Below, piece after piece: positions 2,612-63,157 of a stretch of DNA of 64,000 bases. Position 1 is the first letter of the stretch. Every line of letters starts with the position of its first letter. The notes under the pieces were generated by a model. It ran no database searches and was not told the DNA's origin. It saw nothing but the letters and a program-made list of their open reading frames with translations. Made by a program: the position numbers and the translations under genes. Source of the stretch: Eledone cirrhosa (Eukaryota); contig OZ024740.1 in the NCBI GenBank assembly GCA_964016885.1, positions 427,056,001 to 427,120,000 on the forward strand, read 5' to 3'.

Positions 2612-2642
<31 letters not shown>

Positions 2643-2682
2643 CGATATTAACAAATGGAAACTATATTTATAAAACCCTATT

Positions 2683-2747
2683 TATTTCATTATACATATT
2701 TCAAGGACACCAAGTTAAATTATGGTGTGCTTTCATCAGATAAAATA
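2683..2747 (-). ncRNA. Hammerhead ribozyme motif A1 (minimal type I)
   Basis: Minus strand: tattttat-CTGATGA-aagcacacca..tggtgtcctt-GAAA-tatgta-TA-atgaaata. Stems I and II pair. Confidence 0.75.
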
Positions 2748-2902
2748 TAATATAGAGCAGTTTTATAAATAAATATTGACATACCCTTAAAGAATGCAAC
2801 CATTACTGTTGGAAGCTCCGGGATAGTCCGGGAGCTTCCAACAGTAATGGTTGCATTCTTTAAGGGTATGTCAATATTTATTTATAAAACTGCTCTATAT
2901 TA

Positions 2903-2967
2903 TATTTTATCTGATGAAAGCACACTATAATTTAACTTGGTGTCCTTGAAATATGTATAATGAAATA
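2903..2967 (+). ncRNA. Hammerhead ribozyme motif A2
   Basis: tattttat-CTGATGA-aagcacacta..tggtgtcctt-GAAA-tatgta-TA-atgaaata. Confidence 0.75.
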
Positions 2968-3094
2968 AATATGGTTTTATAAATATAGTTTCCATTTGTT
3001 AATATCGTATTTTTACTCCAATTATTTGTTGAGTGCTTTATATCAGTTATAAAAATATTTGCTTGTTATATCCCAACAATCTAAATAGAACTTT

Positions 3095-6037: not shown

Positions 6038-7089
6038 GGTCGACTGACTGGGTAGAAGCTTCCTCGTGGTCGACTGAGTAGGTAGAAGCTTCCTCGTGGT
6101 CGACTGAGTAGGTAGAAGCTTCCTCGTGGTCGACTGAGTAGGTACAACCTTCCTCGTGGTCGACTGAGTAGGTAGAACCTTCCTCGTGGTCGACTGAGTA
6201 GGTACAACCTTCCTCGTGGTCGACTGAGTAGGTAGAAGCTTCCTCGTGGTCGACTGAGTAGGTAGAACCTTCCTCGTGGTCGACTGAGTAGGTAGACGCT
6301 TCCTCGTGGTCGACTGAGTAGGTAGAAGCTTCCTCGTGGTCGACTGAGTAGGTACAACCTTCCTCGTGGTCGACTGAGTAGGTACAACCTTCCTCGTGGT
6401 CGACTGAGTAGGTAGACGCTTCCTCGTGGTCGACTGAGTAGGTAGAAGCTTCCTCGTGGTCGACTGAGTAGGTAGACGCTTCCTCGTGGTCGACTGAGTA
6501 GGTAGAACCTTCCTCGTGGTCGACTGAGTAGGTAGAACCTTCCTCGTGGTCGACTGAGTAGGTACAACCTTCCTCGTGGTCGACTGAGTAGGTACAACCT
6601 TCCTCGTGGTCGACTGAGTAGGTAGAAGCTTCCTCGTGGTCGACTGAGTAGGTAGAAGCTTCCTCGTGGTCGACTGAGTAGGTACAACCTTCCTCGTGGT
6701 CGACTGAGTAGGTAGAACCTTCCTCGTGGTCGACTGAGTAGGTACAACCTTCCTCGTGGTCGACTGAGTAGGTAGACGCTTCCTCGTGGTCGACTGAGTA
6801 GGTAGAAGCTTCCTCGTGGTCGACTGAGTAGGTACAACCTTCCTCGTGGTCGACTGAGTAGGTAGAACCTTCCTCGTGGTCGACTGAGTAGGTACAACCT
6901 TCCTCGTGGTCGACTGAGTAGGTAGAACCTTCCTCGTGGTCGACTGAGTAGGTACAACCTTCCTCGTGGTCGACTGAGTAGGTAGACGCTTCCTCGTGGT
7001 CGACTGAGTAGGTACAACCTTCCTCGTGGTCGACTGAGTAGGTAGAACCTTCCTCGTGGTCGACTGAGTAGGTAGACGCTTCCTCGTGG
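6038..7089. repeat. 30-bp minisatellite, about 35 units (tcctcgtggtcgactgagtaggtagaagct)
   Basis: Exact 30-bp phasing. Variation is confined to three positions. Confidence 0.98.
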
Positions 7090-10304: not shown

Positions 10305-10401
<97 letters not shown>

Positions 10402-10494
10402 TGTGTGTGTGTGTAGTGGGAGGGATGGCTACCACCTCGCTATCGTAAATGACCAGCTTCTTCCTCTTGGGTTTTCAAGACGACGGAAACATGC

Positions 10495-13400
10495 AACATC
10501 ATAGAACCCTCCAATATACCATACACCGTCATAGAACCCTCCAATATACCATACACCGTCATAGAACCCTCCAATATACCATACACCGTCATAGAACCCT
10601 CTAATGTACCATACACCATCATAGTACCCTCTAATATACCATAAACCATCATAGAACCTTCTAATGTACCATACACCGTCATAGAACCCTCTAGTGTACC
10701 ATACACCATCATATAACCCTCTAACGTACCATACACCATCATAGAACCCTCTAATGTACCATACACCATCATAGAACCCTCTAATATACCTTACACCGTC
10801 ATAGAACCCTCTAATGTACCATACACCATCATAGAACCTTCTAATGTACCATACACCATCATAGAACCATCTAATGTACCATACACCATCATAGAACCCT
10901 CTAATATACCATACACCGTCATAGAACCCTCTAATGTACCATACACCATCATAAAACCCTCTAATATACCATACACCATCATAGAACCCTCTAATATACC
11001 ATAAACCATCATATAACCCTCTAATATACCATACACCGTCAGAGAACCCTCTAATATACCATACACCATCATAGACCCCTCCAATATACCATAAACCATC
11101 ATAGAACCTTCTAATGTACCATACACCGTCATAGAACCCTCTAATGTACCATACACCATCATAGAACCCTCTAATATACCATAAACCATCATAGAACCTT
11201 CTAATGTACCATACACCGTCATAGAACCCTCTAATGTACCATACACCGTCATAGAACCCTCCAATATACCATACACCGTCATAGAACCCTCCAATACACC
11301 ATACACCGTCATAGAACCCTCTAATGTACCATACACCATCATAGAACACTCTAATATACCATAAACCATCATAAAACCTTCTAATGTATCATACACCATC
11401 ATAGAACCCTCTAATATACCATATACCGTCATAGAACCCTCCAATATACAATACACCGTCATAGAACCCTCCAATATACCATACACCGTCATAGAACCCT
11501 CTAATGTACCATACACTATCATAGAACCCTCTAATGTACCATACACCATCATAGAACCCTCTAATGTACCATACACCGTCATAGAACCCTCTAATATACC
11601 ATACACCGTCATAGAACCCTCTAATGTACTATACAGCGTGATAGAACCCTCTAATGTACCATACACCGTCATAGAACCCTCTAATGTACCATACACCGTC
11701 ATATAACCCTCCAATATACCATACACCATCATAGAACCCTCTAATGTACCATACACCGTCATAGAACCCTCTAATGTACCATACACCATCATAGAACCCT
11801 CTAATGTACCATAAACCATCATAGAACACTCTAATGTACCATACACCGTCATAGAACCCTCTAATATACCATACACCGTCATAGAACCCTCTAATGTACT
11901 ATACACCGTGATAGAACCCTCTAATGTACCATACACCGTCATAGAACCCTCTAATGTACGGTACACCGTCATATAACCCTCCAATATATCATATGCCATC
12001 ATAGAACCCTCTAATATAGCAATCACAATCATAGAACCCACTAATATACCATACACCGTCATAGAACCCTCTAATATACCATACACCATCATAGAACACT
12101 CTAATATACCATACACCGTCATAGAACCCTCTAATGTACTATACACCGTGATAGAACCCTCTAATGTACCATACACCGTCATAGAACCCTCTAATGTACC
12201 ATACACCGTCATATAACCCTCCAATATACCATACACCGTCATAGAACCCTCTAATGTACCATACACCGTCATATAACCCTCCAATATACCATACACCATC
12301 ATAGAACCCTCTAATGTACCATACACCGTCATAGAACCCTCTAATATACCATACACCGTCATAGAACCCTCTAATATACCAATCACCATCGTAGAACCCT
12401 CTAATGTACCAAACACCATCATAAAACCCTCTAATGTATCATACACCATCATAGAACCCTCTAATATATCATACACCGTCATAGAACCCTCTAATATAGC
12501 AATCACAATCATAGAACCCACTAATATACCATACACCGTCATAGAACCCTCTAATATACCATACACCATCATAGAACACTCTCATATACCATACACCGTC
12601 ATACAACCTTCTAATGTACCATACACCATCATAGAACCCTCTAATATACCATACACCGCCATAGAAATCTCTAATGTACTATACACCATCATAGAACCTC
12701 TAATGTACCATACACCGTCATAGAACCCTCTAGTGTACCATACACCATCATAGAACCCTCTAACGTACCATACACCATCATAGAACCCTCTAATGTACCA
12801 TGCACCATCATAGAACCCTCTAATATACCATACACCGTCATAGAACCCTCTAATGTACCATACACCATCATAGAACCCTCTAATGTACCATACACCATCA
12901 CAGAACCCTCTAATGTACCATACACCATCATAGCACCCTCTAATATACCATACACCGTCATAGAACCCTCTAATGTACCATACACCATCATAAAACCCTC
13001 TAATATACCATACACCATCATAGAACCCTCTAATATACCATAAACCATCATATAACCCTCTAATATACCATACACCGTCAGAGAACCCTCTAATATACCA
13101 TACACCATCATAAACCCCTCCAATATACCATAAACCATCATAAAACCCTCTAATATACCATACACCGTCATAGAACCCTCTAATGTACCATACACCATCA
13201 TAGAACCCTCTAATATACCATAAACCATCATAGAACCTTCTAATGTACCATACACCGTCATAGAACCCTCTAGTTTACCATACACCATCATAGAACCCTC
13301 TAACGTACCATACACCGTCATATAACCCTCTAATGTACCATACACCATCATAGAACCCTCTAATATACCATAAACCATCATAGGACCTTATAATGTACCA

Positions 13401-16400
13401 TACACCGTCATAGAACCCTCTAATGTACCATACACCGTCATAGAACCCTCCAATATACCATACACCGTCATAGAACACTCCAATATACCATACACCGTCA
13501 TAGAACCCTCTAATGTACCATACACCATCATATAACCCTCTAATATACCATAAACCATCATAGAACCTTCTAATGTATCATACACCATCATAGAACCCTC
13601 TAATATACCATATACCGTCATAGAACCCTCCAATATACAATACACCGTCATAGAACCCTCCAATATACCATACACCGTCATAGTACCCTCTACTGTACCA
13701 TACACCATCATAGAACCCTCTAATGTACCATACACCATCATAGAACCCTCTAATGTACCATACACCGTCATATAACCCTCCAATATACCATACACCATCA
13801 TAGAACCCTCTACTGTACCATACACCGTCATAGAACCCTCTAATGTACCATACACCATCACAGAACCCTCTAATGTACCATAAACCATCATAGAACACTC
13901 TAATGTACCATACACCGTCATAGAACCCTCTAATATACCATACACCGTCATAGAACCCTCTAATGTACTATACACCGTGATAGAACCCTCTAATGTACCA
14001 TACACCGTCATAGAACCCTCTAATATACCATACACCGTCATAGAACCCTCTAATGTACCATACACCGTCATATAACCCTCCAATATACCATACACTATCA
14101 TAGAACCCTCTAATGTACCATACACCGTCATAGAACCCTCTAATATACCATACACCGTCATAGAACCCTCTAATATACCAATCACCATCGTAGAACCCTC
14201 TAATGTACCATACACCATCATAAAACCCTCTAATGTATCATACACCATCATAGAACCCTCTAATATATCATACAACGTCATAGAACCCTCTAATATACCA
14301 ATCACCATCATAGAACCCTCTAATGTACCATACACCATCATAGAACCCTCTAATCTACCATACACCATCATAGAAGCCTCTAATGTACCATACACAATCA
14401 TAGAACCCTCTAATATATCATACATCACCATAGAACCCTCCAATATATCATACACCATCATAGAACCCTCTAATATAGATATCACAATCATAGAACCCAC
14501 TAATATACCATACACCGTCATAGAACCCTCTAATATACCATACACCATCATAGAACACTCTAATATACCATACACCGTCATACAACCTTCTAATGTACCA
14601 TACACCATCATAGAACCCTCTAATATACCATACACCGCCATAGAAATCTCTAATGTACTATACACCATCATAGAACCCTCTAATGTACCATACACCGTCA
14701 TAGAACCCTCTAATATACCATACACCGTCATAGAACCCTCTAATATACCATACACCATTATAGAACCCTCTAATATACCAATCACCATCCTAGATCCCAC
14801 CAATATACCATAAACCGTCATAGAACCCTCTAATATACCATGCACCGTCATAGAACCCTCTAATATACCATACAACATCATAGAAGCCTCTAATGTACCA
14901 TACACCATCATAAAACCCTCCAATATCATACGCCATCATAGAACGCTCTAATATACTTTACACCGTCATAGAACCCTCTAATGTACGATACACCGTCATA
15001 GAACCCCCTAATGTACCATACACCGTCATAGAAGCCTCTAATGTACCATACACACTCATAGAACCCTCTAATGTACCATATACCGTCATAGAACCCTCTA
15101 ATGTACCATACACCATCATAGAACCCTCTAATGTTCCATACACCATCATAGAACCCTCTAATGCACCATACACCATCATAGAATCCAGCAATATACCATA
15201 CACCGCCATAGAACCCTCTAATACACGATACACAGCCATAGAACCCTCTACTGTGACATACATCATCCTAGAACCCTCTAATATACCAAACACCAATCAT
15301 AGAACCCCTCTAAGGTACCAATCACCGTCATAGAACCCTCTAATGTACCAATCACCAATCATAGAACCCTCTAATATACCATACACCGTCATAGAAACCT
15401 CTAATGTACTATACACCGTCATAGAACCCTGTAATGTGCCATACACCGTCATAGAACACTCTAATATACCATACACCGTCATAGAACCTTCTAATGTACC
15501 ATATACCATCATAGAACCCTCTAATGTACCATACACCGTCATAGAACCCTCTAAAGTAGCATACACCATCATATACCCCTCTAATGTACCATACACCGTC
15601 ATAGAACCTTCTAATGTACCATACACCGTCTTAGAACACTCCAATATACCATATACCATCATAGACCCCTCTAATGTACCATACACCATCATATACCACT
15701 CTAATGTACCATACACCGTCATAGAACCTTCTAATGTACCATACACCGTCTTAGAACACTCCAATATACCATATACCATCATAGACCCCTCTAAGGTACC
15801 AATCACCGTCATAGAACCCTCTAATGTACCAATCACCAATCATAGAACCCTCTAATATACCATACACCGTCATAGAAACCTCTAATGTACTATACACCGT
15901 CATAGTACCCTCTAATGTACCATACACCGTCATAGAACCCTCTAATGTACCATACACCATCATAGACCCCTCTAATATACCATACACCATCATGGACCCT
16001 TCTAATATACCATACACCATCATAGAATCCTCTAATATACCATACACCATCATATACCACTCTAATGTACCATACACCGTCATAGAACCTTCTAATGTAC
16101 CATACACCGTCTTAGAACACTCCAATATACCATATACCATCATAGACCCCTCTAATGTACCATACACCGTCATAGTACCCTCTAATCTACCATACACCGT
16201 CATAGAACCCTCTAATGTACCATACACCATCATAGACCCCTCTAATATACCATACACCATCATGGACCCTTCTAATATACCATACACCATCATAGAATCC
16301 TCTAATATACCATACACCATCATAGAACCCTCTAATATACCATACACCGTCATAGAACCTTCTAATGTACCATACACCAGCATAGAACCCTCTAATATAC

Positions 16401-17409
16401 CATACACCATCATAGAACCCTCTAATGTACCATAAACCATCATAGAACCCTCTAATGTACCATACACCATCATAGAACCCTCTAATGTACCATATACCGT
16501 CATAGAACCTTCTAATATACAAATCACCATCATAGAACCCTCTAATGTACCATACACCATCACAGAACCCTCTAATGTACCATATACCCTCATAGAACCC
16601 TCCAATATACCATACACCATCATAGAACCCTCTAATATACCAATTACTATCATAGAACCCTCTAATGTACCATACACCATCATAGAACCCTCTAATATAC
16701 CATACACCGTCATAGAACCTTCTAATGTACCATACACCATCATAGAACCCTCTAATATACCATACACCGTCATAGAACCCTCTAATGTACCATACACCGT
16801 CATAGAACCCTCTAATGTACCACACACCGTCATAGAACCCTCTAATATACCATACACCATCATAGAACCCTCTAATGTACCATAAACCATCATAGAACCC
16901 TCTAATGTACCATACACCATCATAGAACCCTCTAATGTACCATATACCGTCATAGAACCCTCTAATATACCAATCACCATCATAGAACCCTCTAATATAC
17001 CATACACCATCATAGAACCCTCTAATGTACCATATACCCTCATAGAACCCTCCAATATACCATACACCATCATAGAACCCTCTAATATACCAATTACCAT
17101 CATAGAACCCTCTAATGTACCATACACCATCATAGAACCCTCTAATATATCATACACCACCATAGAACCCTCCAATATATCATACACCATCATAGAACTC
17201 ACTAATGTACCATACACCGTCATATAACCCTCCAATATACCATACACCATCATAGAACCCTCTAATGTACCATACACCGTCATAGAACCCTCTAATGTAC
17301 CATACACCATCATAGAACCCTCTAATGTACCATAAACCATCATAGAACCCTCTAATGTACCATACGCCGTCATAGAACCCTCTAATGTACCATATACCGT
17401 CATATAACA
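10495..17409. repeat. 30-bp satellite, about 230 units (atagaaccctctaatgtaccatacaccgtc), with higher-order duplication
   Basis: Strict 30-bp phasing with a few indels. Rare variant units recur about 2 kb apart. Confidence 0.98.
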
Positions 17410-17590
17410 TTTCGCAGGAGATAGATTAGCATAGATTATGATCAAACATATATAGTGAGGAGTATTTTTTAATCCTGTAACATCTCCAACATCAACCCTC
17501 TTTAAGATGCAAGCTTGCTGAGACTACCAGATAGTTATTGATGACACGAACGTGCTCTGGATTGCATGAGTATGCATAAAGACCCGCCAC

Positions 17591-17972: not shown

Positions 17973-18021
<49 letters not shown>

Positions 18022-18166
18022 ATGCTTTGGGAGGGTCATGTTGCCAATAAGAAACACACTCACCAATTTCTTTCACTACAATTTATTATAATAAATTTAT
18101 AAATTTAGGAATTTATAAATTTCCGGTTGGTTGGTTGGTTGCACAACCAGATGATTGTTTATATAT

Positions 18167-18211
18167 TGTCAAAGTTCTTTCGTCACACATTCTCTGACCT
18201 CTTCAGTGACT
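18167..18211 (-). ncRNA. Hammerhead-like motif B1
   Basis: Minus strand: gtca-CTGAAGA-g-gtca..tgac-GAAA-gaac-TT-tgac. Confidence 0.55.
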
Positions 18212-18674
18212 GGGGATTCTTTTCTTTGTTTTTGTGCCTCCCTTTGTTCTGTCCTACGCCATATTGTTTTTGTGTTTGTGTTGTGTGCTTAGTTTGCGCA
18301 TGTGTTACATCCGGGTGTGTGTGTGTGTGTGTGTTTATATTCGTTTATTTATTTGTTTATTTACATGTTACTTGTTGGTTGTTTGTTCTATGTGCGTGTG
18401 TGTTTTCATTTTGTCCTTAATTGAAAGTTGTGATGTTGCATGAATGGAATAGCAACATCACAACTTACAATTAAGGAAAACATGAAAACACACACGCCCA
18501 TAGAACAAACAAACAACCAGTAACATGTAAATAAACTAATAAATAAACAAATATAAACACACACAGACACCCGGATGTAACACATGCGCAAACTAAGCAC
18601 ACAACACACACACAAAAACAAGATGGCGTAGGACAGAACAAAGGAGAGGCACAAAAACAAAGAAAAGAATCCCC

Positions 18675-18719
18675 AGTCACTGAAGAGGTCACAGAATGTG
18701 TAACGAAAGAACTTTGACA
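18675..18719 (+). ncRNA. Hammerhead-like motif B2
   Basis: agtca-CTGAAGA-g-gtcaca-gaatg-tgtaac-GAAA-gaac-TT-tgac. Confidence 0.55.
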
Positions 18720-18931
18720 ATATATAAACAATCATCTGGTTGTGGAACCAACCAACCAACCGGAAATTTATAAATTCCTAAATTTATAAATATATTATAA
18801 TAAATTGAAGTGAAAGCAACTGGTGAGTGTGTTTCTTATTGGCAACATGACCCTCCCAAAGCATAACAATATCGGTTTCAACACACGTTTTCAGATAAAG
18901 AATCTTGCTAAACAAATTCAGAAATGAAATA

Positions 18932-25108: not shown

Positions 25109-25191
25109 GGAGGTGAGTTTTATTGTAGTACAATAAAGCAATGCAGATATCGGATAAGAAGCACTCTACAGTTTGTAGGACTGGAGTATAC

Positions 25192-25257
25192 ATAATATAT
25201 AAGAGCAAAAGATGGTTAAAAGAGTTCCATGGAACTCTTTTAACCATCTTTTGTTCT

Positions 25258-25267
<10 letters not shown>
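25192..25267. repeat. Near-perfect palindrome made of the 3' tip of a hammerhead-bearing element
   Basis: caaaagatggttaaaagagttccatggaactcttttaaccatcttttg. The arm matches 38431-38456. Confidence 0.85.
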
Positions 25268-25297
<30 letters not shown>

Positions 25298-26507: not shown

Positions 26508-29410
26508 GTTTTGTTATATGTTTCAGCTGTCACACTGCTATCATATAACACACATCTAAAAACACGCAATCAAGATACAAGCAGAAAGCTCAACCAGCGT
26601 GGATGCGAAATTTAAAATCCAAAATGTTGTCCCTGAGACGAAGTATCTCACACATCGCAGTCGTTATGAAATGCAACATAGAGAGGAACTTCACACGACA
26701 CCAGGAAGACCTAAAGAAAAAGTTAGAGAGACGATTTGGAGATACAAAATTTAAAACTTTGAACTCCAAATTACACCAGTTGAAACAACAACTCACAGCT
26801 ACAACAGAAAGACTGAAATATAAGTCAACAGCACATAAACGACAAGTGCTAAATAGATTGTTTGCCAGAGATCCTAAATCAGTTTATCGCAGCTTCGGTG
26901 GCAAAAGCTCAATCTCTGTAAATGACACCCCTTCAAAAGAACAGGTTGAGAGCTACTGGAGATCTGTATGGGAAACGGATGACGGATTCAACAGACAAGC
27001 TAATTGGCTAAAAGAACTGGAACAGGACTACTGCCAACATGTCCAGACAAAACAATATGACATAGATGGGTCAATACTGGAAACAGCTCTACAGAAAATG
27101 TCGAATAGGAAATCGCCAGGCCCAGACCTCATTACAGGATACTGGTTGAAGAATTTCACTTTCTATCGGCAAGATCTCATACGGCTGTTTACAGAAACCA
27201 TTAAGGGCACACAAGAACTGCCCAGATGGTTATCAACTGCCTCTACTCTCCTCATTCCCCCAAATAGCCAAACCACCCTTGCTAAAAATTACCGCCCAAT
27301 TGCCTGCCAAAACATCATGTATAAATTATATACTGGGTGCCTTAACCTGTTCTTACAGGATCACTGTGCTACCAACAACATCATAAGACCTGAGCAGGCT
27401 GGTGGAAAGAGGGAGGTGTGGGGTTGCATAGATCACATACTAACTAACAAAATGATTCATGAAAAAACAACAAAGAATCGCAGAAACATGACTGTCGTGT
27501 GGCTGGACTATCAAAAAGCATTTGATAGTGTACCTCATGGGTGGATTGTTAAGGCTTTACAGTTAGCTAAAGTCCCACAACCATTGGTAGCTGCTGTTGA
27601 ACGCCTGACCAAGAACTGGTACACCAGTTTGATCCTTAGAGGTGAGAAGAAGCAGGTTAAGACTGATAAGATACATTACCAGAAGGGCATCTTTCAGGGT
27701 GATAGCTTGTCAGTGCTTCTCTTCGTTCTCTCACTGAATCCACTATCTTACCTACTCAGGAAGCAAGGTGGACAAAGAAGTGGGCCCAGAAGTATCTCCC
27801 ATCTTTTCTTTGTTGATGACCTGAAGTTGTATGGGCCAAATATCAATGACATCAAGAAACAATTGGACCTCATTACACATTTTTCAACCGACATCAACAT
27901 GAAATTTGGTGAGTCTAAGTGTGCATATTTAGCAGTAAAACGTGGAAGAGCTGTGCCCTCCTCTAGGAATCTAGAGATGAACGGCCTGACAATACAACCT
28001 CTGCAGTCAGGTGACAACTACATATATCTTGGACAGGATGAGAATGTCAGATATGATGGACCCATAAATAAGGAGAGAACCAGAACTGAATACCTCAGAA
28101 GAGTAAAGAAAATATGGTCATCAGAACTGTCAGCATACAACAAATACATTGCCCACAATACTTATGCTGTGCCAATTCTAACGCCAACATTTGGCCTGCT
28201 GAACTGGTCATTGCAAGAACTAAGTGAGATGGATGTTAGAACTCGAAAACTTCTCAGTGTTACTGGGAACTTTAACATCAATGGTGAAGTGGATAGGCTA
28301 TACTTCTCACGCAAGGAAGGTGGCCGGTGTCTAAAATCAATATTAACAACATATGAGACCCGGATAGTAACACTGAAGCAACACCTTCAACAGAGGAAAA
28401 AGGTTGGCAACCATCTTGCCCAGGTTTATGAGCATGAAAAAAGAAATATCATTAGAATAGCGACTGATCTGGAGGAGAGATATGGAATAAAGCCTGATAT
28501 AAATCTCTCACCCAGAGAAATCGGAAGATCCTATTCAATGTTCAAACAAGATAAAAAATTGACCAATTTACAGAAAAAGTTGTGCATGGATACTTGAGGC
28601 GTAAAACACAGACCATAGAGGGGATAAACCACTCAAAAAGCCTGGCATGGAGTTCCGACAAGTTTATGACATCACACCTTGAGGGATATCTCTATGCAAC
28701 ACAGGAACAAGAACTCCCTACCAAATATCTGTTGCACAAAAGAGGAGGGCCAGCAGCTGACAATAAGTGTAGGCTATGTAAAACAAAGATCGAGGATGTA
28801 AGCCACATTGTTGCCAGCTGCGAAAGAATGTCATCTCGCTACTACCTCCCCATGAGACACGATGGGATAGCTAGAACCATCTGGAACGCACTTCGGAAAA
28901 CAAAATTAACAACAAACGAAGAAGAATATATTGAGACAGATGGCACTAAGGAATACTGGTGGAACCTGAAAATAAAAACTGCCACCAAATTAAAGCACAA
29001 CCGGCCTGATATTGTAGTTTGGGACCACACATTGAAAACGTGTTCTGTTGTGGAGATCAGCTGCCCACTTGATGTAAACGTTGTCAGAAAAATACAGGAG
29101 AAGGAGGACATCTACGGACCATTGATGAGGAGTTTACAAATCCAGTATCCAAGATACACCTTTAGCTTCATACCCATCATTATTGGTGCTACGGGTTATA
29201 TACCAACCCGCTTGGACCAAAGTATGACTGAACTTGGATTTGCGGACAAAAAGCGCAGCTCCCTATCATAGTCAACAAATGGCAGGCACCTTCAACATTT
29301 GCAAAACATTCTTGCGATTCAAGGGATGACAATTTCTTTTCTTTTACAACCTTGCCACCAGGAAGGTGGCCGGTCAAAAAAATATACTCGAAATTAAGAG
29401 AAAGAGAAAA
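26507..29410 (+). mobile_element. 5'-truncated R4/Dong-like non-LTR retrotransposon (RT plus RLE) in (TACA)n
   Basis: RT followed by CCHC, RHD and PD-(D/E)xK-type RLE motifs. (TACA)n lies on both flanks. Confidence 0.88.
26603..29271 (+). pseudogene. Reverse transcriptase / restriction-like endonuclease ORF, frameshifted at about 28582
   Basis: KSPGPD, NYRPIAC, LDYQKAFDSV, GIFQGDSLS and FVDD in 26603-28597. CRLCK..SHIVASC, RHD, NRPDIVVWD and VVEISCP in a second frame, 28582-29271. Confidence 0.9.
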
Positions 29411-34047: not shown

Positions 34048-34503
34048 ATACTTGGGAAGGGTCATATTTGTGTAATATTGCCAGAATTAATAACAGAACA
34101 CACTCACTGTTTGGTTGGTTTTCGCTTCTGTATCTTTTATATCGGTTAATTTAATTTATTCGGTCCTCAATGTTGCCATTGACTGACCAACGGTCAAAAA
34201 TACAGATACAATATAGTCACAGACACATATATATAGTTTATCAAAGTTCTTTCGTTGCACATCTGCAACATCGTCAGTGTAGCTATTATGTTTCCTCCAG
34301 TTGCTTACGCAATCTTTATTTAGTATGTTTATTTATTTATTTGTTTATTTTTTGTCTTCTCTGCGCATACGTTTGCTTGTGTGTATAGTGTTTTGTTTGA
34401 TGTGTGTTCTTGTTTGGGTGACTGTGTATTGGTTAATGTATTCTATCTTAGTTTACTAGTGTGTGTTTATATGTGTTTGTTGTTATTGTGCTTGTGTATG
34501 TAT

Positions 34504-34750: not shown

Positions 34751-34878
34751 AAAGTTATATTTAAATTGTTGGGTTAACAACGAGTAAATATTTATAACTG
34801 ATATAAAAGCACTCAACAAGTATTTGGAGTATATTTATGATATTAAATAAATGGAAACTATATTTATAAAACCATATT

Positions 34879-34944
34879 TATTTCGTTATATATATTTCAG
34901 GGATATCATATTAACAATATGTTATGCCTTCTTCAGACAAAATA
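34879..34944 (-). ncRNA. Hammerhead ribozyme motif A4
   Basis: Minus strand: tattttgt-CTGAAGA-aggcataacatatt-gtt-aatatgatatccct-GAAA-tatata-TA-acgaaata. Confidence 0.8.
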
Positions 34945-35867
34945 CAATATAAACAGTCTTATAAATAAATAGATACGACATACCTTTCAATCACCTTGCA
35001 TTTGGGAGGTTGATTTGGCAGTAAAAAATATTGTGGACAGTTGTAAAAAGAAAGAGAGAAAGAAAGAAAGAAAGAGAAACGAAGAAAAAGAAGAAATGCA
35101 TGTGACTAAATAGAGAGATATAGAAAGATAGATAAAGAGAAGAACTTCATGTAAAGAAACAGAGAGAAATATATATAGAGAGAGGAAAAAAGAAAGAGAT
35201 AGATAGAGATAGATAGAGAAACTAGGAAGTTGAGTATCGGTTGATACATTTATTTATTTATTTATTTATTTATTTAGCTCTAGTATTAATGTAAAGAGAG
35301 ATGTATGTAGTTAAGAGAGAAAATAGCCGTTATATAGAGAGAAAAAAGAGAAAATGAAAAAGAGAAAATGAAAAATAACCAGACATAAACGAGGTAGAGT
35401 TTAAAAACGCTATGTTTTATCCTGTAGAAAATATTAGTTCGTATAAAACAGGCATTATAATGTAAATATCAGTATTCATGAATGAGGCATGTATCTATAA
35501 TGTGTGAAAAGTAATGATCTTATGTCTAGTTTTTAAAAATTCATATGTTTATATCATAATTATAAACAAACTCCCAATTCACACGAAAACATTCTCATTG
35601 TGCTATAAAAATTCAAGTATACATATATGTGTGTATATATACACATATATATAGAGTCTATATTAATTTTAACAATACTATTCTTGTCTTTACTCTACAT
35701 GATTGTTGATCAAGCAGAAATAGAGAACAGATTTCAATATATTAATAAAAATAAAAATAAAAATAAAAATAAAAATAAAAATAAAAATAAAAATAAAAAT
35801 AAAAATAAAAATAAAAATAAAAATATCAGAGACAAGAAGATAAATAAATAAACAGAAAACTAAAACA

Positions 35868-36383
35868 TTTAATTTCGTTTCTGAATTTGTTTAGCAAGAT
35901 TCTTTATCTGAAATCGTGTGTTGAAACCGATATTGTTATACTTTGGGAGGGTCATGTTGCCAATAAGAAACACACGCACCAGTTGCTTTCACTTCAATTT
36001 AATTCATTATATATTTATAAATTTACAAATTTATAAATTTCTGGTTGGTTGGTTGGTTCCACAACCAGATAGTTGTTTATATATATATAGTCATAGTTCT
36101 TTCGTCACACACTCTGTGACCTCTTCAGTGACTGGGGATTTCTTTCTTCGTTTCTGTGCCTTTCCTTTCTTCTATCCTACGCCATTTTGTTTGTGTGTGG
36201 GTTGCGTGCTCAGTTTTATATGACTATATATATATAAACAACTATCTGGTTGTGGAACCAACCAACCAACCAGAAATTTATAAATTTGTAAATTTATAAA
36301 TATATAATAAATTAAATTGAAGTGAAAGCAACTGGTGCGTGTGTTTCTTATTGGCAACATGACCCTCCCAAAGTATAACAATA
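35868..36383. mobile_element. Family B inverted pair nested inside the family A insertion
   Basis: 35931-36095 is mirrored at 36219-36383. The long tail is at 35868-35930. Confidence 0.85.
36089..36133 (-). ncRNA. Hammerhead-like motif B4
   Basis: Minus strand: agtca-CTGAAGA-g-gtcaca-gagtg-tgtgac-GAAA-gaac-TA-tgact. Perfect 5-bp stem I and 6-bp stem II. Confidence 0.65.
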
Positions 36384-37467
36384 AAACATTTAATATTAAA
36401 AATAAAAAATATTACAAAATATTAAAAAATAATAAAAATAAAACATAGTATGCCACGCAAATCGGCCACAGAGATCAGCCTTTCAAAGTTAATTGACAAT
36501 ATATTGCCAAGTTCATCATACGCATCAGAGTCGAAACAGATAAAACAAAAATTGTTTACCAAATCCTGTCTAGCAGAAATCATTCCAAAAGTTTAGGATA
36601 CCCATTTGGTCTACATATGTTCTTATATTTAATATAGAAGTTTATCTAGTGTAAAATTTAATTCGATATATTTGGAGCATCAGCTTTTAGGGTAGTTTAA
36701 TTATTCATGAAGAATGTTTTAATAAAAAGAATGTTTTAATAAAAAGAAGAAATCGAAAGATTTATCGGCTAGTTTCATAGATAATTACAAATCAAATCAA
36801 ACATAACTACATTTTAAATTTAAATTTATATTTAAACGTTGAGTTCAATCTATGTCTGCAGCAACTGAATAAATTTGTCCGTAGATTAAGGGAATTTTTA
36901 GATTTCACACATTATAGATACATGTCTCATTCATGAATACTGATATTTACATTATAATGCCTGTTTTATACGAACTAATATTTTCTACAGGATAAAACAT
37001 AGCGTTTTTAAACTCTGCCTCGTTTATGTCTGGTTATTTTTCATTTTCTCTTTTTCATTTTCTCTTTTTTCTCTCTATATAACGGCTATTTTCTCTCTTA
37101 ACTACATACATCTCTCTTTACATTAATACTAGAGCTAAATAAATAAATAAATAAATAAATAAATGTATCAACCGATACTCAACTTCCTAGTTTCTCTATC
37201 TATCTCTATCTATCTCTTTCTTTTTTCCTCTCTCTATATATATTTCTCTCTGTTTCTTTACATGAAGTTCTTCTCTTTATCTATCTTTCTATATCTCTCT
37301 ATTTAGTCACATGCATTTCTTCTTTTTCTTCGTTTCTCTTTCTTTCTTTCTTTCTCTCTTTCTTTTTACAACTGTCCACAATATGTTTTACTGCCAAATC
37401 AACCTCCCAAATGCAAGGTGATTGAAAGGTATGTCGTATCTATTTATTTATAAGATTGTTTATATTG

Positions 37468-37533
37468 TATTTTGTCTGAAGAAGGCATAACATATTGTTA
37501 ATATGATATCCCTGAAATATATATAACGAAATA
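37468..37533 (+). ncRNA. Hammerhead ribozyme motif A5
   Basis: Plus-strand mirror of A4. Confidence 0.8.
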
Positions 37534-37570
37534 AATATGGTTTTATAAATATAGTTTCCATTTATTTAAT

Positions 37571-37630
<60 letters not shown>

Positions 37631-37797: not shown

Positions 37798-37968
37798 TAA
37801 GCAAAGGGATATTTAATTTGTTGGTAATTCAATAAATATATATGTCAATATTTATAAAACAATCTTCGTATTTTATCTGATGAGCGTACCAAATTGTTGG
37901 TACCCTTGAAATATATATAATAGAATAAATATGGTTTTATAAATATAGTTTCCATTTATTAATATCAT

Positions 37969-38456: not shown

Positions 38457-38527
38457 TATTTTATTATGCGCATTTCAAAAATAAATATCATCATGCAATA
38501 ACATTTGTGTTTTCATCAGATAAAATA
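38457..38527 (-). ncRNA. Hammerhead ribozyme motif A7 (divergent subfamily)
   Basis: Minus strand: tattttat-CTGATGA-aaacacaaatgttatt..gatgatatttattttt-GAAA-tgcgca-TA-ataaaata. Lies in a 115-bp insert within (TA)n. Confidence 0.78.
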
Positions 38528-38745: not shown

Positions 38746-39298
38746 CATTCTATATGTAGGTGGAGCCATTCATTCTATATGTAGGTGGAGCCATTCATTC
38801 TATATGTAGGTGGAGCCATTCATTCTATATGTAGGTGGAGCCATTCATTCTATATGTAGGTGGAGCCATTCATTCTATATGTAGGTGGAGCCATTCATTC
38901 TATATGTAGGTGGAGCCATTCATTCTATATGTAGGTGGAGCCATTCATTCTATATGTAGGTGGAGTCATTCATTCTATATGTAGGTGGAGCCATTCATTC
39001 TATATGTAGGTGGAGCCATTCATTCTATATGTAGGTGGAGCCATTCATTCTATATGTAGGTGGAGCCATTCATTCTATATGTAGGTGGAGCCATTCATTC
39101 TATATGTAGGTGGAGCCATTCATTCTATATGTAGGTGGAGCCATTCATTCTATATGTAGGTGGAGTCATTCATTCTATATGTAGGTGGAGCCATTCATTC
39201 TATATGTAAGTGGAGCCATTCATTCTATATGTAGGTGGAGCCATTCATTCTATATGTAGGTGGAGCCATTCATTCTATATGTAGGTGGAGCCATTCAT
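38746..39298. repeat. 25-bp minisatellite, about 22 units (cattctatatgtaggtggagccatt)
   Basis: Near-identical units with a period of 25. Confidence 0.97.
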
Positions 39299-50583: not shown

Positions 50584-51397
50584 GAAGTTACTATTGTGGG
50601 CACGAACTCATGGGAGTCACAGTAGAGGAAGTTATACACAAGGTAATATTGTGAGAACCAACTCAAGGGAGTCACAGTAGAGGAAGTTATACACAAGTTA
50701 CTATTGTGGGAACCAACTCAAGAGAGACACAGTAGAGGAAGTTATACACAAGTAATATTGTGGGAACTAACTCAAGGGAGACACAGTAGAGGAAGTTATA
50801 CACAAGTTACTATTGTGGGAAACAACTCAGGGGAGACACAGTAGAGAAAGTTATACACAAGGTAATATTGTGGGAACTAACTCAAGGGAGACACAGTAGA
50901 GGAAGTTATACACAAGTTACTATTGTGGGAAACAACTCAGGGGAGACACAGTAGAGAAAGTCATACACAAGGTACTATTGTGGGAACCAACTCATGCGAG
51001 ACACAGTAGAGGAAGTTATACACAAGGTACTATTGTGAGAACCAACTCAAGGGAGACACAGTGGAGGAAGTTATACACAAGGTAATATTGTGGGAACCAA
51101 CTCAAGGGAGACACAGTAGAGAAAGTTATACACAAGTTACTATTGTGAGAACCAACTCAAGGGAGACACAGTAGAGGAAGTTATACACAAGGTACTATTG
51201 TGGGAACCAACTCATGGGAGACACAGTGGAGGAAGTTATACACAAGGTACTATTGTGGGAACCAACTCAAGGGAGACACAGTAGGGGAAGTTATACACAA
51301 GTTACTATTGTGGTAACCAACTCAAGGGAGACACAGTAGAGGAAGTTATACACAAGGTAATATTGTGGGAACCAACTCAAGGGAGACACAGTAGGGG
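50584..51397. repeat. 55-bp minisatellite, about 14-15 units
   Basis: ggaagttatacacaaggtactattgtgggaaccaactcaagggagacacagtaga, with a period of 55. Confidence 0.95.
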
Positions 51398-51504
51398 ATG
51401 ACCTGCTCGAACCTTCATTAATCAACTCTTACATGTTACCTGGAGAAATGGTAAATCGAGGATTGTGGAGAGACTTTGTCAGGAATATTCAACTGTGGTT
51501 GCAA

Positions 51505-52044: not shown

Positions 52045-52575
52045 AAACAACAACAACAGCAACAAGAGTATACAGCATTTGGACATATCCCATTACTAGT
52101 AACATAAACGTTTTACATTCAATACTTTCAATACAATAGAAAATACACAACCAACACATCCTACACAGACACGAGGGGAACTCAGCTGTGTTGTGTAATG
52201 CACTGAAAGGACAGAAATAAATAAATAAAGATATATATGTATATAGTGAAAGAGTGAAGAATAACACGGTCGGGTGTACAAAATGGGTTTTATTTACAGT
52301 ATAAAAAATTGTTTCATTGATCAGATGAGTCTAAGGCCGCTAATCACTTGGTGTAGCGTCACACAGTGTGTGTCTCTGATCAAATCATTGGAATACTGGG
52401 TATTCCGATGATTTTATCAGAGACGCCTCCTGTATTTAAGGTCGAATGACGCAATTTCGAGTGATCAGCGGTGTTAGACTCACCTGATCAATGAAACAAT
52501 TGTTAATACTGTAAATAAAACCCTTTTTGTACAGCCGACCATGTTATTCTTCACTCATTCACTATATATATATAT
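52045..52575. mobile_element. Head-to-head inverted pair, pLTR-like family C
   Basis: Diverged arms at 52238-52396 and 52400-52570. The left arm probably continues as a tail to about 52045. Confidence 0.7.
52400..52509 (+). ncRNA. Degenerate hammerhead motif C (long stem II), with mirror copy at 52297-52398 on minus
   Basis: gtatt-CCGATGA-ttttatcag-[about 60 nt]-ctgatcaat-GAAA-caattg-TT-aatac, then aaataaa. The mirror has CCAATGA-tttgatcag..ctgatcaat-GAAA. Confidence 0.55.
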
Positions 52576-52576
52576 T

Positions 52577-54308
52577 GAATACAGACGCTTCTTACATAAT
52601 GCAGGAATTAGGCATTGAAAATAGAACACAACCCTTCATGCCAAGGAAACCAAAAATTAATATGAAGGACCACAAAAGGAACTTTGAAATTGACTTACCA
52701 GTTAGATTAATTTCACCATCTAAATCTGACCTCTGCATACTTAGCAAGAACATTTTAGACAGAATAATACCACAACTTAAGGAATTATCTTATTTAAAAT
52801 TATGGAAAGGAACTAACGAAGTTATCGAATGGTTTAAAGACATTAAATATAATTATAATAATAAGTTTATTCAATTTGATAATGCTAATTATAACTCATC
52901 CATCACTCCTAATCTACTTAATAAAGCACTGACATATGCTTTTAAACATACAGACTTAACTAGTAATGAAATGCACATTATCCTAACGACACGGAAAACA
53001 TTAATTAAATTTAACAACCAACTCTGGACTAGAGCAGATAGAGATAATAATTTCGTTGTCACTATGGGGTCATCGGATTCCGCCCGGGTAACGGATGTTG
53101 TGGGGCTTTTTATAAATAATACTCTACACAGAAAAATGCCGGAGATGACCGGAGGTTTATATCGCGACGATATGCTATTACTTATCGAAAATAATAACTG
53201 TGAATTAAATAGGAAAAGAAAAGAAATTATACATTTTTTAAATTACATTAATCTTAAAGTAGAAATAGAGAATAATTATAAAATAGTTAACTTTCTAGAT
53301 GTAACCTTAAACCTTAACACACGTCTTCATTATCCATTTCACAAATTAAACGAGAACTTAAACTACGTTAATTTTAACTCCAATCACCCCAGATCCGTTA
53401 AAAATCCTATAGTAAATTCTGTGCAGCAACGCATTTCTAGAATTTCAGCTAATAAGAATATTTTTGATGATAAAGCACAATATTACAACGAAGCGTTAGG
53501 TAGAGCTGGATATAGTAATAAAATTAAATATATTGATAATAATAATATAACAAATAACCATAATTTTAACAACTATAATAGAAAACCTTACAATAATTCG
53601 AAAAACAAAAAAAGAAATAGAACTAGGAATATATTATGGTTTGCTCCTCCTTTCTCATTAAATATTAAAACTCCTATTGCTAAACTATTTTTTAAAGCTC
53701 TTGACAAATGCTTCCCTAGAACACATAGATATTACTCAATATTTAATAGACATACTATAAAATTGACTTATTCAACCACCAGCAATTTAGCGCAGAATAT
53801 TAATAGAATTAATAATAGAAACTTAAAACCTAACCAGAATACAACTAACAACCCAAGCAATATCCAATTTAATAATACGGCTCCTAGTAACTTGAATTTT
53901 GATAAATGTAACTGTAGAAATAAATCTAACTGTCCGTTAAATAACAATTGTTTAGCTAAAAATATAGTATATAATTGTAATGTAAAAACTAATTTAAATT
54001 CATTTAATTGTGTAGGTTCTATTTCCACAGACTTTAAATCCCGCTTTAATAACCATAAATGCTCTTTTACGAATATAAATAAAAAATCTTCAGCTTCTCT
54101 ATCTAGCTTACTATGGGACCTAAAATTAAAGAACATTAACTATTCTTTACTTTGGAATATTATTTCCAAAGCTCCTCCATTTAACACCTCTTCGGAAAAT
54201 TGTGCTCTTTGTATAGAGGAAATATTCTTTATAATAAAGAACAAAAATTCTGTGAATTTAAGGAACAATCTTTTCAGTTGCTGCAAACAGATTAAATTCA
54301 ACGTTTAA
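52577..54308 (+). CDS. 5'-truncated Penelope-like element ORF: RT plus C-terminal GIY-YIG endonuclease (probably decayed)
   Basis: KDHKRNF..RLISPSKS, FIQFD, VTMGSSD, GLYRDD, NFLDVTL, SNHP, WFAPP, CxC-x5-C-x5-C, IVY..CVG..FKSRFNNH, CALC..E. Several consensus residues are altered (YVG to CVG). Confidence 0.9.
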
Positions 54309-54913
54309 ATATAAATTAAAAATGTAATATATAACTCATCTTATTAAACCTATCGATAAATCATTAGATTCCTTAATACGACTGCCAAAAACTCTCTTAA
54401 ATGAAGAAAAACTTTTTTCCTTAAAACTTTTTTCCTTATAAAAAATTGTTTTCCTTAAAAATTTTTTTCTTAAAAATTTTGTCATTAAAAGTTTTCCTTG
54501 AAAATTCTTTTAGATAAACATACTGAAAGTTAAAAAGAAAATGGGTATAAAAAATTAAGATAAACATACTGAAAGTTAAAAAAAAAAAAGGTTTATTGTT
54601 AATTCCTCTGATGGATATAAAAAATTATAAAAAATTATAATTCATATTTTATACTGTGTTTTTTCTATATATTTTTCTATATATTTTTAAAATTATATTG
54701 CTTAAAAATTACATATTTTTATAATTATATTGGTTAAAAATTACATTGCTTAAAAATATAATTCCTTCTAAAATTATATAATTATATCTTTTTTAAAAAT
54801 TGTAATTCCTTTTAAAATTATAATCCTTTTTAAATTATAACTCATATTTTATTTTATATTATGTATTTTCTATTTATATATATATATATGTATATGTGTA
54901 TATGTATGTGTGC

Positions 54914-55605: not shown

Positions 55606-56102
55606 CATATATATATTTTTTTTTAATTATATATTCTTTTAAGAATATATAGATCTCAATTTTAAATTTTTAATTTTTAATTTATAGATCTCAATAATTT
55701 AATCAAATTTAAACATTAGATAAAACTCTCCGGTTATTACTATTTATTTATTTATTTATTTATTTACTTCGCCTAATTCATCCAACATATATTTATTTTT
55801 TCGCTTCATCATCTCATAAAATTACGTTAATACAACACTCTCTCACTTAGGGTGTTCTCTCTTTCTCTTTCTATTCATTGTTTTTCTTTCGACTCTCTTT
55901 TTCCTTTTCCTATTATTTCTTCCCTATTCCAACGGCTTAATTTCAATGTAGGGGATTTAAACCTTTCCGACACTAATTTACATAATAGACCACTAATAAA
56001 ATTAGTAACCCCACTATCCGGGACTATCCGGGAGCTTCCAGCCGACATGGTTGCATTCTTTAAGGGTATGTCAATATTGGTTTATAAAACTGATCTATAT
56101 TA

Positions 56103-56167
56103 TATTTTATCTGATGAAAGTGCGCCATAATTTGCTTTGGTGCCCTTCAAATATGTATAATGAAATA
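56103..56167 (+). ncRNA. Hammerhead motif A8 (catalytic G12 mutated: CAAA)
   Basis: tattttat-CTGATGA-aagtgcgcca..tggtgccctt-CAAA-tatgta-TA-atgaaata. Confidence 0.65.
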
Positions 56168-56198
56168 AATATGGTTTTATAAATATAGTTTCCATTAG

Positions 56199-56269
<71 letters not shown>

Positions 56270-60670: not shown

Positions 60671-62610
60671 TTTTTTTTTTATTAACCACAAGGTTTACAC
60701 AAAATAAGACGTTTAGGACAATACAGGACAATACAGGACGGTACAAATGGGCATTTCTCCGTGTGAAAAAAACAAAAACAGAGGATGTAGCAAAAAAAAG
60801 AAACAATGAAAAATTCCCCAATACGGGAGAGACTTCCGAGGGACATTCGTGGAGAAAGCCCATTAAAAAAGCCACGATGACCCGACCACCAGGGCAAGTG
60901 CACTCTCCCATTTTTCCAGCTTCAATTTACAGGCATATACTCACGGGCCATTCTTGCCTCTCTCACCCATCTTTCAACAAAATGCTGGGAAGAGAGCACA
61001 TCCCTTTCTACCCTGATTTTCATTTTCAAATGAAATTTGAAAAAGTTAATCAAGGCATCACCGAAGAGGTAAGTGCTCGTCTTAAGCCCTTTCAAACGTG
61101 TCCACCATTCTATCTCTTTCGCCATGGCCACCAGACAGATAAAAACTGCCTGCCCTTCCCGGCTATAAGAAGAGGGTGGAGCAATCATCACGATGGACTC
61201 AGCTGATAGCCGGATCCGTCCTAAACGCGACAGCAGGTGTTCGACATAAACCCACAAGTCAGCAATTTTCGGACACTGGACGAGTGCGTGCAGGACGGTT
61301 TCGTCGCCCTGCGCGCATCTTGGACATGCCCGCTTGACGGCACCTCCATGCCTGTAGAGTTTATCCCGAACTGGCAAATTCCTCGGTAGCATTGCCAGGC
61401 CAGTCAGGGATTTCTGGAAGTTGTCCATAGGCCCTGGCCCGAAAGATCTTCCGAAGAGATTGGCTAGTTGATTTTCGTCGACGCCTAGAGTTTCCCCAAG
61501 TACGTCGTCTCTCTTCCTCTCCACTAATCCTCTATAGGATGCCAAGGTGGAGTTTCCACCGATCACATTGCCCGACTGGTCGAGGGCTGTGAGCGCCTGA
61601 AGACATTCCAATCTCCAAGCGCTCCCGCTCGGTCTTCGCTTGATCCAGGACTGCAGCTCAGTCAAGGAGACGAGCTGGGGAAAGACGCGTCTAGCAAACG
61701 GTGGCCACACCTGATCACCGTCGAGGAAGAGGTGGAAATGTAGCCTCAGCGCGTGCCTGCGCATCATCAGCCACGGCATGCCCAGCCCTCCACGTAGCGG
61801 GTGTTGACAGTAGATTGACCGCCTGACCATCGGAGCGCATCCCTTCCACAAAAAGCGAAAGAGCAAACGCTCCAGCGCAGTCAGGCGAGGCTTAGGAAAA
61901 GGCACGACGGTCAGGCGGTAGTAGATGACGGACGCGATGTACGCATTCGCCACCTCGACTCAACCTTTCAGGGATAGCTTCCTCTCTACCCATTTCTGGG
62001 TGAGAGAAGCCACCCTGCTCGTCACCTCGTCCAAGTTTTTGTCCGTCTGGAGGTCCGGACCGAACCAGACCCCTAGCAATTTAACTGGTCCATCCGTCCA
62101 GCGCCCGACGAGAGGGGACATCTTTGGCGGACCGAGCGCATGATGTTGAACGGCTGCGAAGGTGACCGTTCACTCTTATCACAGAGCAGATGTCGCTGTG
62201 CATGGTAGCGATCCAGCCGCTGAAGGCAGGCCCAAAGCCAGCCGCCCTCAGGTCTGCCGCCAGATAACGATATTCGACCCTATCCAAAGCTTTCGACTGA
62301 TCTAAATTAATCAAGGACCCACCCGTGCCAGGTTCCCTAGCTACCCTCACCACGATGTATCGCATGAGGTGGAGTTTGTCGTGGATGGATCTGTCTGGAA
62401 TGGCGCATGTCTGCGCCTCTCCCACCAGACCACCAACGACAAGCGCCAACCTCTTTGCTAGCACCTTGGCCAAAATCTTGAACTCTGTGTTAAGCAGAGT
62501 TATGGGCCTGAAATTATCTATGTTATCCCCCTTGTTCGGATCCTTTCTCAACAGTGCCACCGCTCCTCGGCTCACAGAGCTAGGAATTCTCCCGTTTTGT
62601 TGCCAGTTGC
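60671..62610 (-). mobile_element. L1/Tx1-clade LINE fragment (RT plus zf-RVT/CCHC), frameshifted and internally deleted
   Basis: NFRPITLLNTEFKILAK, LDQSKALDRV, LLGVWF, FLWKG, GGLG, CPRC..ETVLHALVQC. AATAAA and poly(A) at 60671-60684 on minus. Confidence 0.88.
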
Positions 62611-63157
62611 AGGATGAAAGACACAACTAACGTCAACGAAAGGATTCAAACACAAAGGGCTGTAACTACATGACGCAAATCATGTTGTCCGATAATCTAC
62701 CGATGCTGACATCAATAATGGGTTATGATTTAGGTACAAAGGCAACAATTTTTGGGGAGAGGAAAGTTAATTAAATCAACCTCAGTGCTTTACTGGTACT
62801 TTATTTTACCCACTCCGTAAGGATGAAAGGTAAAGTTAACCTTGGTGGGATCTGAACTCAGGAGGTAAAGGGTCGTAACTATATAACGCAAACTATGTTG
62901 TCAGACGTTCAACGATATAGACAATCAAATAATAATTTCTTTTGACCCCGTAATGAAGAAAGGCAAACGTAACCTACCTCGGTGGGATTTAAACTCAGAG
63001 GTTTAACTATATAACTATATGGAGCAAAGTCTGTTGCCCTACCGTTACTGACAATCCAATAATAATTGTTTGTACTGTTGGCACAAGGCCAGCAATTATC
63101 CCAGTGCAGTACTGGTACTTTATTTTATGGACCCCGTAAGGATGAAAGGCAAAGTCA
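62611..63157 (-). mobile_element. Cluster of 3-4 tandem SINE family 1 fragments
   Basis: Repeated aggatgaaaggcaaagtt..gaactcag motifs near 62611, 62820, 62950 and 63140. Confidence 0.75.

Follow-up and report, generated by a model that had tools for sequence, protein, structure and literature searches.

A head-to-head Penelope-type insertion with one arm starting within two bases of a predicted hammerhead cut: a plausible, unproven trace of in vivo cleavage

The question raised by this locus is whether the 5′ end of an insertion arm can record an RNA that had cut itself before being copied into the genome. Within the window (the whole stretch of DNA that was analysed, 64,000 nt of AT-rich, microsatellite-laden, animal-like DNA), an insertion near 36 kb carries a hammerhead in one of its two arms, and the other arm starts within two bases of the position at which this ribozyme is predicted to cut. 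Possibly this start records a self-cut RNA copied into the genome, chance being about an even match for that account.

The stretch 35874-36381 is a short insertion in which two 3′ fragments from a single Penelope-type (PLE) family stand head to head. Its two inverted arms are flanked by 13-bp direct repeats starting at 35861 and 36382, a longer span than that given by the original prediction. Its parts are as follows.

35861-35873, plus strand: target-site duplication, left copy, 13 bp, AT-rich (direct repeat)
35874-36216, minus strand: left arm, 3′ part of the PLE pseudo-LTR, from -123 through an intact hammerhead to the tail end
35874-35930, minus strand: 57-nt tail, in the left arm only (arm comparison)
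36089-36133, minus strand: minimal type I hammerhead, predicted to cut after C-U-A, between 36094 and 36093
36217-36220, unstranded: junction TATA between both 5′ ends, its last two bases equal to element -2/-1
36219-36383, plus strand: right arm, starting at -2 by homology or at +1 (36221)
36382-36394, plus strand: target-site duplication, right copy (direct repeat)

The right arm, an inverted 5′-truncated partner joined at its 5′ end, repeats 36095-35931 in inverted orientation, a single mismatch occurring over 165 nt, and contains neither a ribozyme core nor a tail. The insertion contains no ORF. The left arm is 86-90% identical to two arms near 18 kb, and both the one-sided tail and the two 3′ end points recur in the insertion at that position. 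An inverted truncated partner, a one-sided tail and an AT-rich target are the PLE signature in the accessible text of PMC8557442 and PMC11167929. The element has the known insertion anatomy of PLEs. Since inverted repeats are prone to fold-back chimeras and deletions, the arrangement might be an assembly chimera of this type, or might have lost the 5′ part of its right arm by deletion after insertion. The clean 13-bp duplication, the one-sided tail sharing the 18-kb end points and the single mismatch between the arms make such an artefact highly improbable.

The hammerhead lies where it was originally placed, with its core and stems on the minus strand. On this strand, the stem I strand AGUCA (36133-36129) is followed by the core CUGAAGA (36128-36122), an extra G (36121), a 6-bp stem II, GAAA (36103-36100), GAAC-UA (36099-36094) and UGACU (36093-36089). 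The predicted cut falls directly before 36093, and +1 of the 3′ product corresponds to 36221 in the right arm. Of the features of a minimal type I hammerhead, the motif has the core CUGANGA...GAAA...UH, stems I and II, the G10.1-C11.1 pair and an extra base between positions 9 and 10.1. The motif had been described as atypical, a description that is not supported: the extra base, here the G at 36121, is listed for PLE minimal hammerheads in the available part of PMC4209133. A more distant relative was also found.

34227-34279, minus strand: distant hammerhead relative, stem II changed on both sides, GAAAGAACU retained

The core and GAAAGAACU are invariant in four of four family copies, and the distant copy (34279-34227) keeps the core with two stem II pairs altered on both sides. 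To judge from the invariant core and these two-sided changes, the hammerhead is kept under selection for structure. Position H17 is A only in the left partner arm at 36 kb and U in the other three family copies. The fold energy is no better than that of shuffled sequences (z -1.1). As the fold alone is not distinguishing, the ribozyme call is based on the core, the stems and conservation within the family. The best 150 of 243 Rfam matches included low-complexity matches only and no hammerhead. In the 36-kb copy, stems I and II are stable (-11.4 kcal/mol). The palindrome of helix III is imperfect: 4 of 6 positions pair, and two central A-A oppositions occur in the dimer; its dimer energy, +1.4 kcal/mol, is the weakest of six tested (-1.7 to -10.5 for the five others). 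Altogether, the 36-kb hammerhead is by its sequence an ordinary PLE minimal type I motif with predicted self-cleavage.

The right arm had been reported to start at the predicted cut. Its homology does begin at 36219 and +1 does fall at 36221, but the literal start is then -2, which is two bases too far for a cut RNA. Left-arm homology to the two 18-kb copies stops at 36216, which leaves the TATA at 36217-36220 in between, with no more than its final two bases matching the element. The junction can be read in two ways: four untemplated bases were added to a start at +1, or the start is at -2, with a TA microhomology and two added bases.

The first reading corresponds to the original proposal that the arm was made by run-off from a self-cleaved RNA. 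It holds to the extent that the junction is compatible with it, that R2 offers a precedent and that three events at +1 or +2 occur elsewhere (L015:10683, L064:9092 and L132, see below), all of which strengthen it. It does not hold as the sole account, since TA microhomology at -2/-1 on an uncut template explains the junction equally well. On this second account the truncation arose by chance: the left cDNA, its end being TTT to which a TA had been added, base-paired with the TA at -2/-1 and from there served as primer for the inverted arm, the ribozyme being uninvolved. This is a serious but tentative contender, somewhat under an even chance, and the same can be said of the route proposed for it, in which the cDNA either snapped back onto itself or paired with a second cDNA. 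That homology reaches -2, and so takes in an H17 base (A) peculiar to the partner arm, speaks for it and weakens run-off, as a templated TA needs no further assumption. Such a microhomology is moreover cheap, given that TA occurs 23 times in 286 nt of the left arm, and a difference at only 1 of 165 nt between the arms is what a single template would give. Nevertheless, this account also requires two untemplated bases.

How often arm ends fall at the cut could first be counted within the window, which holds several related insertions.

18014-18929, unstranded: second insertion of the same family as the 36-kb one (sequence match)
34830-37582, unstranded: older head-to-head, hammerhead-bearing insertion of another family, hosting the 36-kb insertion in its long arm
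52515-54308, plus strand: PLE-type ORF with a GLYRDD-containing RT plus, at the C-terminus, a GIY-YIG-like domain (motifs)

A scan for cores with stems I and II gave 11 hammerhead motifs, eight of which stand in four head-to-head pairs; two further hammerheads, one of them degraded, are visible at 37877 and 56108. Family copies within the window occur as inverted pairs or singly, and no head-to-tail tandem units were seen among them. In the insertion at 18014-18929, both arms begin about 260-275 nt upstream of the cut and retain the hammerhead, with U at H17. Its arms show 7 and 1 private differences relative to the 36-kb arm over 269 columns, and these unequal changes suggest that two different RNA templates were used in that insertion. 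Seventeen arm ends could be placed in a census compiled by hand, in which distant ends are approximate: 1 lies at the cut, 2 (25187-25272) at +9, 1 at +98 and 13 at -72 or further upstream. The 16 ends away from the cut weaken run-off. With a 4-nt tolerance, the chance of one such end among 17 is 0.16, 0.24 or 0.37 for a spread of 400, 250 or 150 nt, which favours a chance truncation. The single 36-kb case thus carries little weight alone (chance 16-37%).

The long arm of the host insertion carries the end of a PLE ORF at 36819-36899, matching 54243-54321 at 81% over 81 nt. By sequence, the ORF at 52515-54308 is tied only to this host family and not to the 36-kb family. It has 780 relatives. 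We take it to be a PLE from its GLYRDD RT motif and GIY-YIG-like domain, a label derived from motifs alone because a Pfam search of the ORF gave no match.

Several other features of the window were recorded. The two arms of the 18-kb insertion are 7% apart. The ORF at 52515-54308 is long and stop-free, and its first 20 codons match 52234-52293 on the opposite strand. The stretch 25187-25272 is a perfect palindrome without a spacer, in which both arms begin at +9 of the cut, at a CATG palindrome (positions counted against the hammerhead family at 38519, minus strand); it could be a fold-back, or else the product of two run-off cDNAs that were cut back to a microhomology of 4 nt. The two family junctions at 2640-3010 and 56008-56205 share one small natural hairpin, located roughly 135-143 nt upstream of the cut. 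This hairpin is a hot spot of truncation that has nothing to do with cleavage. Remnants of two LINE-type RTs, in which RVT_1 and zf-RVT domains were recognised, occupy 26549-29271 and 60922-62626, and long minisatellite arrays are found at 10378-17500 (period about 30 nt), 6038-7089 (about 60, or 30), 50585-51398 (about 55 nt) and 38746-39298 (about 50 nt).

The wider check of truncation points was carried out on other families in other organisms. Relatives of the ORF, together with the hammerhead pattern, led to G001 (12 Mb) and G006 (20 Mb), two bacterial-labelled public bins with many animal-like contigs rich in PLEs and hammerheads. Nineteen DNA searches were made with family stretches spanning the cut, some overlapping in family, and at most the best 40 candidates were scored in each, so that some copies can be missed. 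Junctions were inspected and 142 loci (1.53 Mb) were scanned by script. Starts were read off local alignments, which in diverged copies leaves an uncertainty of a few bases. Not counted were starts outside -30 to +30, rows ending before about +25, three rows at +29 and one at +28 (likely a flanking repeat or another part of an arm already counted), antisense artefacts arising from one chimeric reference, and L136 (+8, a deletion in a paralogue of L135). The second copy of C26, six of seven C87 copies and 21 satellite copies were set aside as repeats of one event.

Starts at +1 or +2 came from 3 of the 19 family searches, the other 16 giving none among the 40 or fewer candidates scored in each. 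They represent three independent events. One arm, L015:10683, begins exactly at +1 in a head-to-head pair that is 100% identical to its own family with a 1-nt overlap. It was not a blind draw, because this arm itself had prompted the wider search. Another arm, L064:9092, likewise begins exactly at +1. In L132, both arms begin at +2 and are joined at a self-complementary GC without a spacer, and the one-sided tail and 13-bp duplication give it the same anatomy as the 36-kb insertion; a 13-bp duplication occurs at L138 as well. A hammerhead dimer acts by cutting both RNAs, and the symmetric +2/+2 start of L132 is as expected if both had been cut.

In G001, G006 and G008, 4 of the 43 arm starts between -30 and +30 lie at +1 or +2, where 1.43 would be expected if starts were even. 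This excess has a P of 0.054 by arms and 0.16 by events (3/42). The rest of the 43 starts divide into 23 upstream (-30 to -1, inside the ribozyme) and 16 downstream. Counting the diverged G006 C26 pair, entered as +3, as a match lowers P to 0.044 by events, and this pair may be a fourth event at the cut. When families F8a-c, F9, F10 and Z are left out, a post hoc choice, 4 of 18 starts are at +1 or +2 (P 0.003 by arms, 0.018 by events). A further arm, L152, begins at +4. No new start at +1 or +2 appeared in 80 further G001 contigs taken in numerical order (834 kb), and a query from a second PLE clade recovered only its own locus. The excess of 5′ ends at the cut is therefore at most modest and not significant. 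The sharp peak that the original prediction had looked for is absent from these genomes, but neither is a flat profile established. Starts are near-even over -30 to +30, with 2-6 per 5-nt bin, as a chance truncation would have it, although the +1 to +5 bin is the fullest (6/41), and the two exact +1 starts and the symmetric pair are left unaccounted for by chance.

The same counts bear on a third explanation, namely that the RT stalls at the folded, uncut hammerhead, so that ends gather near the three-way junction without any cleavage. The 23 of 43 starts inside the ribozyme, many of them at -5 to -28, and the stability of stems I and II in the 36-kb copy are in its favour. However, the histogram lacks a clear pile-up at one helix edge, a stop before stem I would give about +6 instead of +1, and the downstream density (16 per 28 nt) is not much below the upstream one (23 per 30 nt), which together render stalling unlikely. 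As 85 arms in the scripted 1.53 Mb extend beyond -32, in addition to the 23 upstream starts, most templates were uncut. This is in line with the available text of PMC11167929, according to which uncut RNA predominates as template in vitro and no RNA-seq reads end at the cut, a result that also weakens run-off, as does the weakness of helix III in the 36-kb family.

Other loci in these bins were noted as well. At L015:9056 (G001 C61), the bases +1 to +4 are duplicated (4 nt) exactly at the predicted cut, a duplication absent from five family copies; it is possibly a template jump at a cut end. At L128 (G001 C335:4844-4998), a piece from -28 to -1 ends exactly at H17 and precedes a second copy starting at -28, the piece having its 3′ end at the cut. 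L114 (G006 C29) and 20 further places are one head-to-head hammerhead insertion inside a satellite, present in 21 near-identical copies. Regarding the window's own families, a 20-mer of the 36-kb family gave one match in a bacterial-type contig (L001), judged to be chance, but no match in viral or genome contigs, and a 30-mer from the window's other families matched nothing. Searching viral contigs with the hammerhead pattern and the PLE protein returned nothing. Part of the arm is contained in 20 of 24 sequencing runs listed, in all cases as assembled contigs, and no RNA run is among them.

Taking these results together, run-off of a cDNA at the 5′ end of the predicted hammerhead-cut RNA is given just under an even chance as the origin of the right arm's end. 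The verdict on the locus as a whole, an ordinary PLE insertion that bears a plausible though unproven mark of cleavage in vivo, is put at the same near-even level. Under run-off, an endonuclease would have nicked both strands of the AT-rich site 13 bp apart, as the 13-bp duplication indicates. Each nick would then have primed reverse transcription, one at the tail start and the other at the tail-less start, as in vitro work on the anole element suggests. The left copy read through the intact ribozyme to -123, whereas the right cDNA would have stopped at +1 and gained untemplated T/A bases, after which the two cDNA ends could have been joined via the self-complementary TATA. Two RNAs may have served as templates, one per nick; the private differences at 18 kb (7 versus 1) hint at two. 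Cut templates would be a minority route, accounting for a few per cent of arms, and not the main pathway. More generally, it is proposed, with rather less than even confidence, that animal PLE minimal hammerheads cut germ-line RNA inside a dimeric RT complex, where two RNAs are brought into proximity, and that the cut 3′ stubs are copied and linked in head-to-head orientation. Fossils of in vivo cleavage would then make up a few per cent of insertions, and symmetric +2/+2 pairs such as L132 would mark double cuts made by a ribozyme dimer.

Within the open-licence literature, including the accessible text of PMC6765202, PMC7229834, PMC6431247 and bioRxiv 10.64898/2026.07.22.740005, no report of genomic PLE 5′ ends at a hammerhead cut was found; none is given in the available parts of PMC8557442 or PMC11167929, either. 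A test of 5′-end enrichment at the cut was not found in print in the same literature. Fig. S2 of PMC11167929, a plot of genomic copies relative to the template, may be relevant to this point. The useful part of the present analysis is a cheap genomic test of an open question, applicable to any full assembly. If 5′ ends turn out to be enriched at +1 to +3, repeat-rich animal assemblies would hold a family-by-family record of cleavage that can be read without bench work. Such an enrichment would also show that insertions are shortened by the cut, which may thereby restrain the element instead of helping it.

The closest known systems are the EN+ PLEs (Craig et al. 2021, PMC8557442; Frangieh et al. 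2024, PMC11167929). Their accessible descriptions share with the 36-kb insertion the inverted 5′-truncated partner, the tail at one end only (two RT start sites), the AT-rich target and a hammerhead near the 3′ end or in the terminal repeat. The 36-kb insertion differs in having no ORF and a tail of 57 nt, versus 30-40. For the anole PLE, the available text of PMC11167929 reports that the hammerhead cuts in vitro with protein present and that a protein dimer is predicted. Known PLE minimal type I hammerheads resemble the 36-kb motif in their short stem I, long stem II, tiny helix III, extra base between positions 9 and 10.1 and G10.1-C11.1 pair, and opposite-strand pairs 100-700 bp apart have already been noted. 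The 36-kb motif, a predicted ribozyme, is set apart by the two central A-A oppositions in its imperfectly palindromic helix III. In R2, as described in the accessible part of Eickbush, Burke and Eickbush 2013 (PMC3774820), the cut of an HDV-like ribozyme coincides with the 5′ junctions, which show untemplated bases and microhomology. As in the proposed route, reverse transcription proceeds to a 5′ end made by a ribozyme, untemplated bases are added to the cDNA and microhomology serves to join it. R2 uses another ribozyme and belongs to another element class, and its cut defines full-length 5′ ends, whereas the cut at 36 kb would leave a 165-nt 3′ stub and be at most a minor route. Finally, the non-LTR retrozymes of animals (PMC7229834; bioRxiv 10.64898/2026.07.22.740005, in their available text) are non-coding and PLE-related and carry a type I hammerhead, like the 36-kb insertion, and cleavage and circular RNA have been shown for some of them. 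These elements are head-to-tail tandem units, while the 36-kb insertion is a head-to-head pair with one ribozyme.
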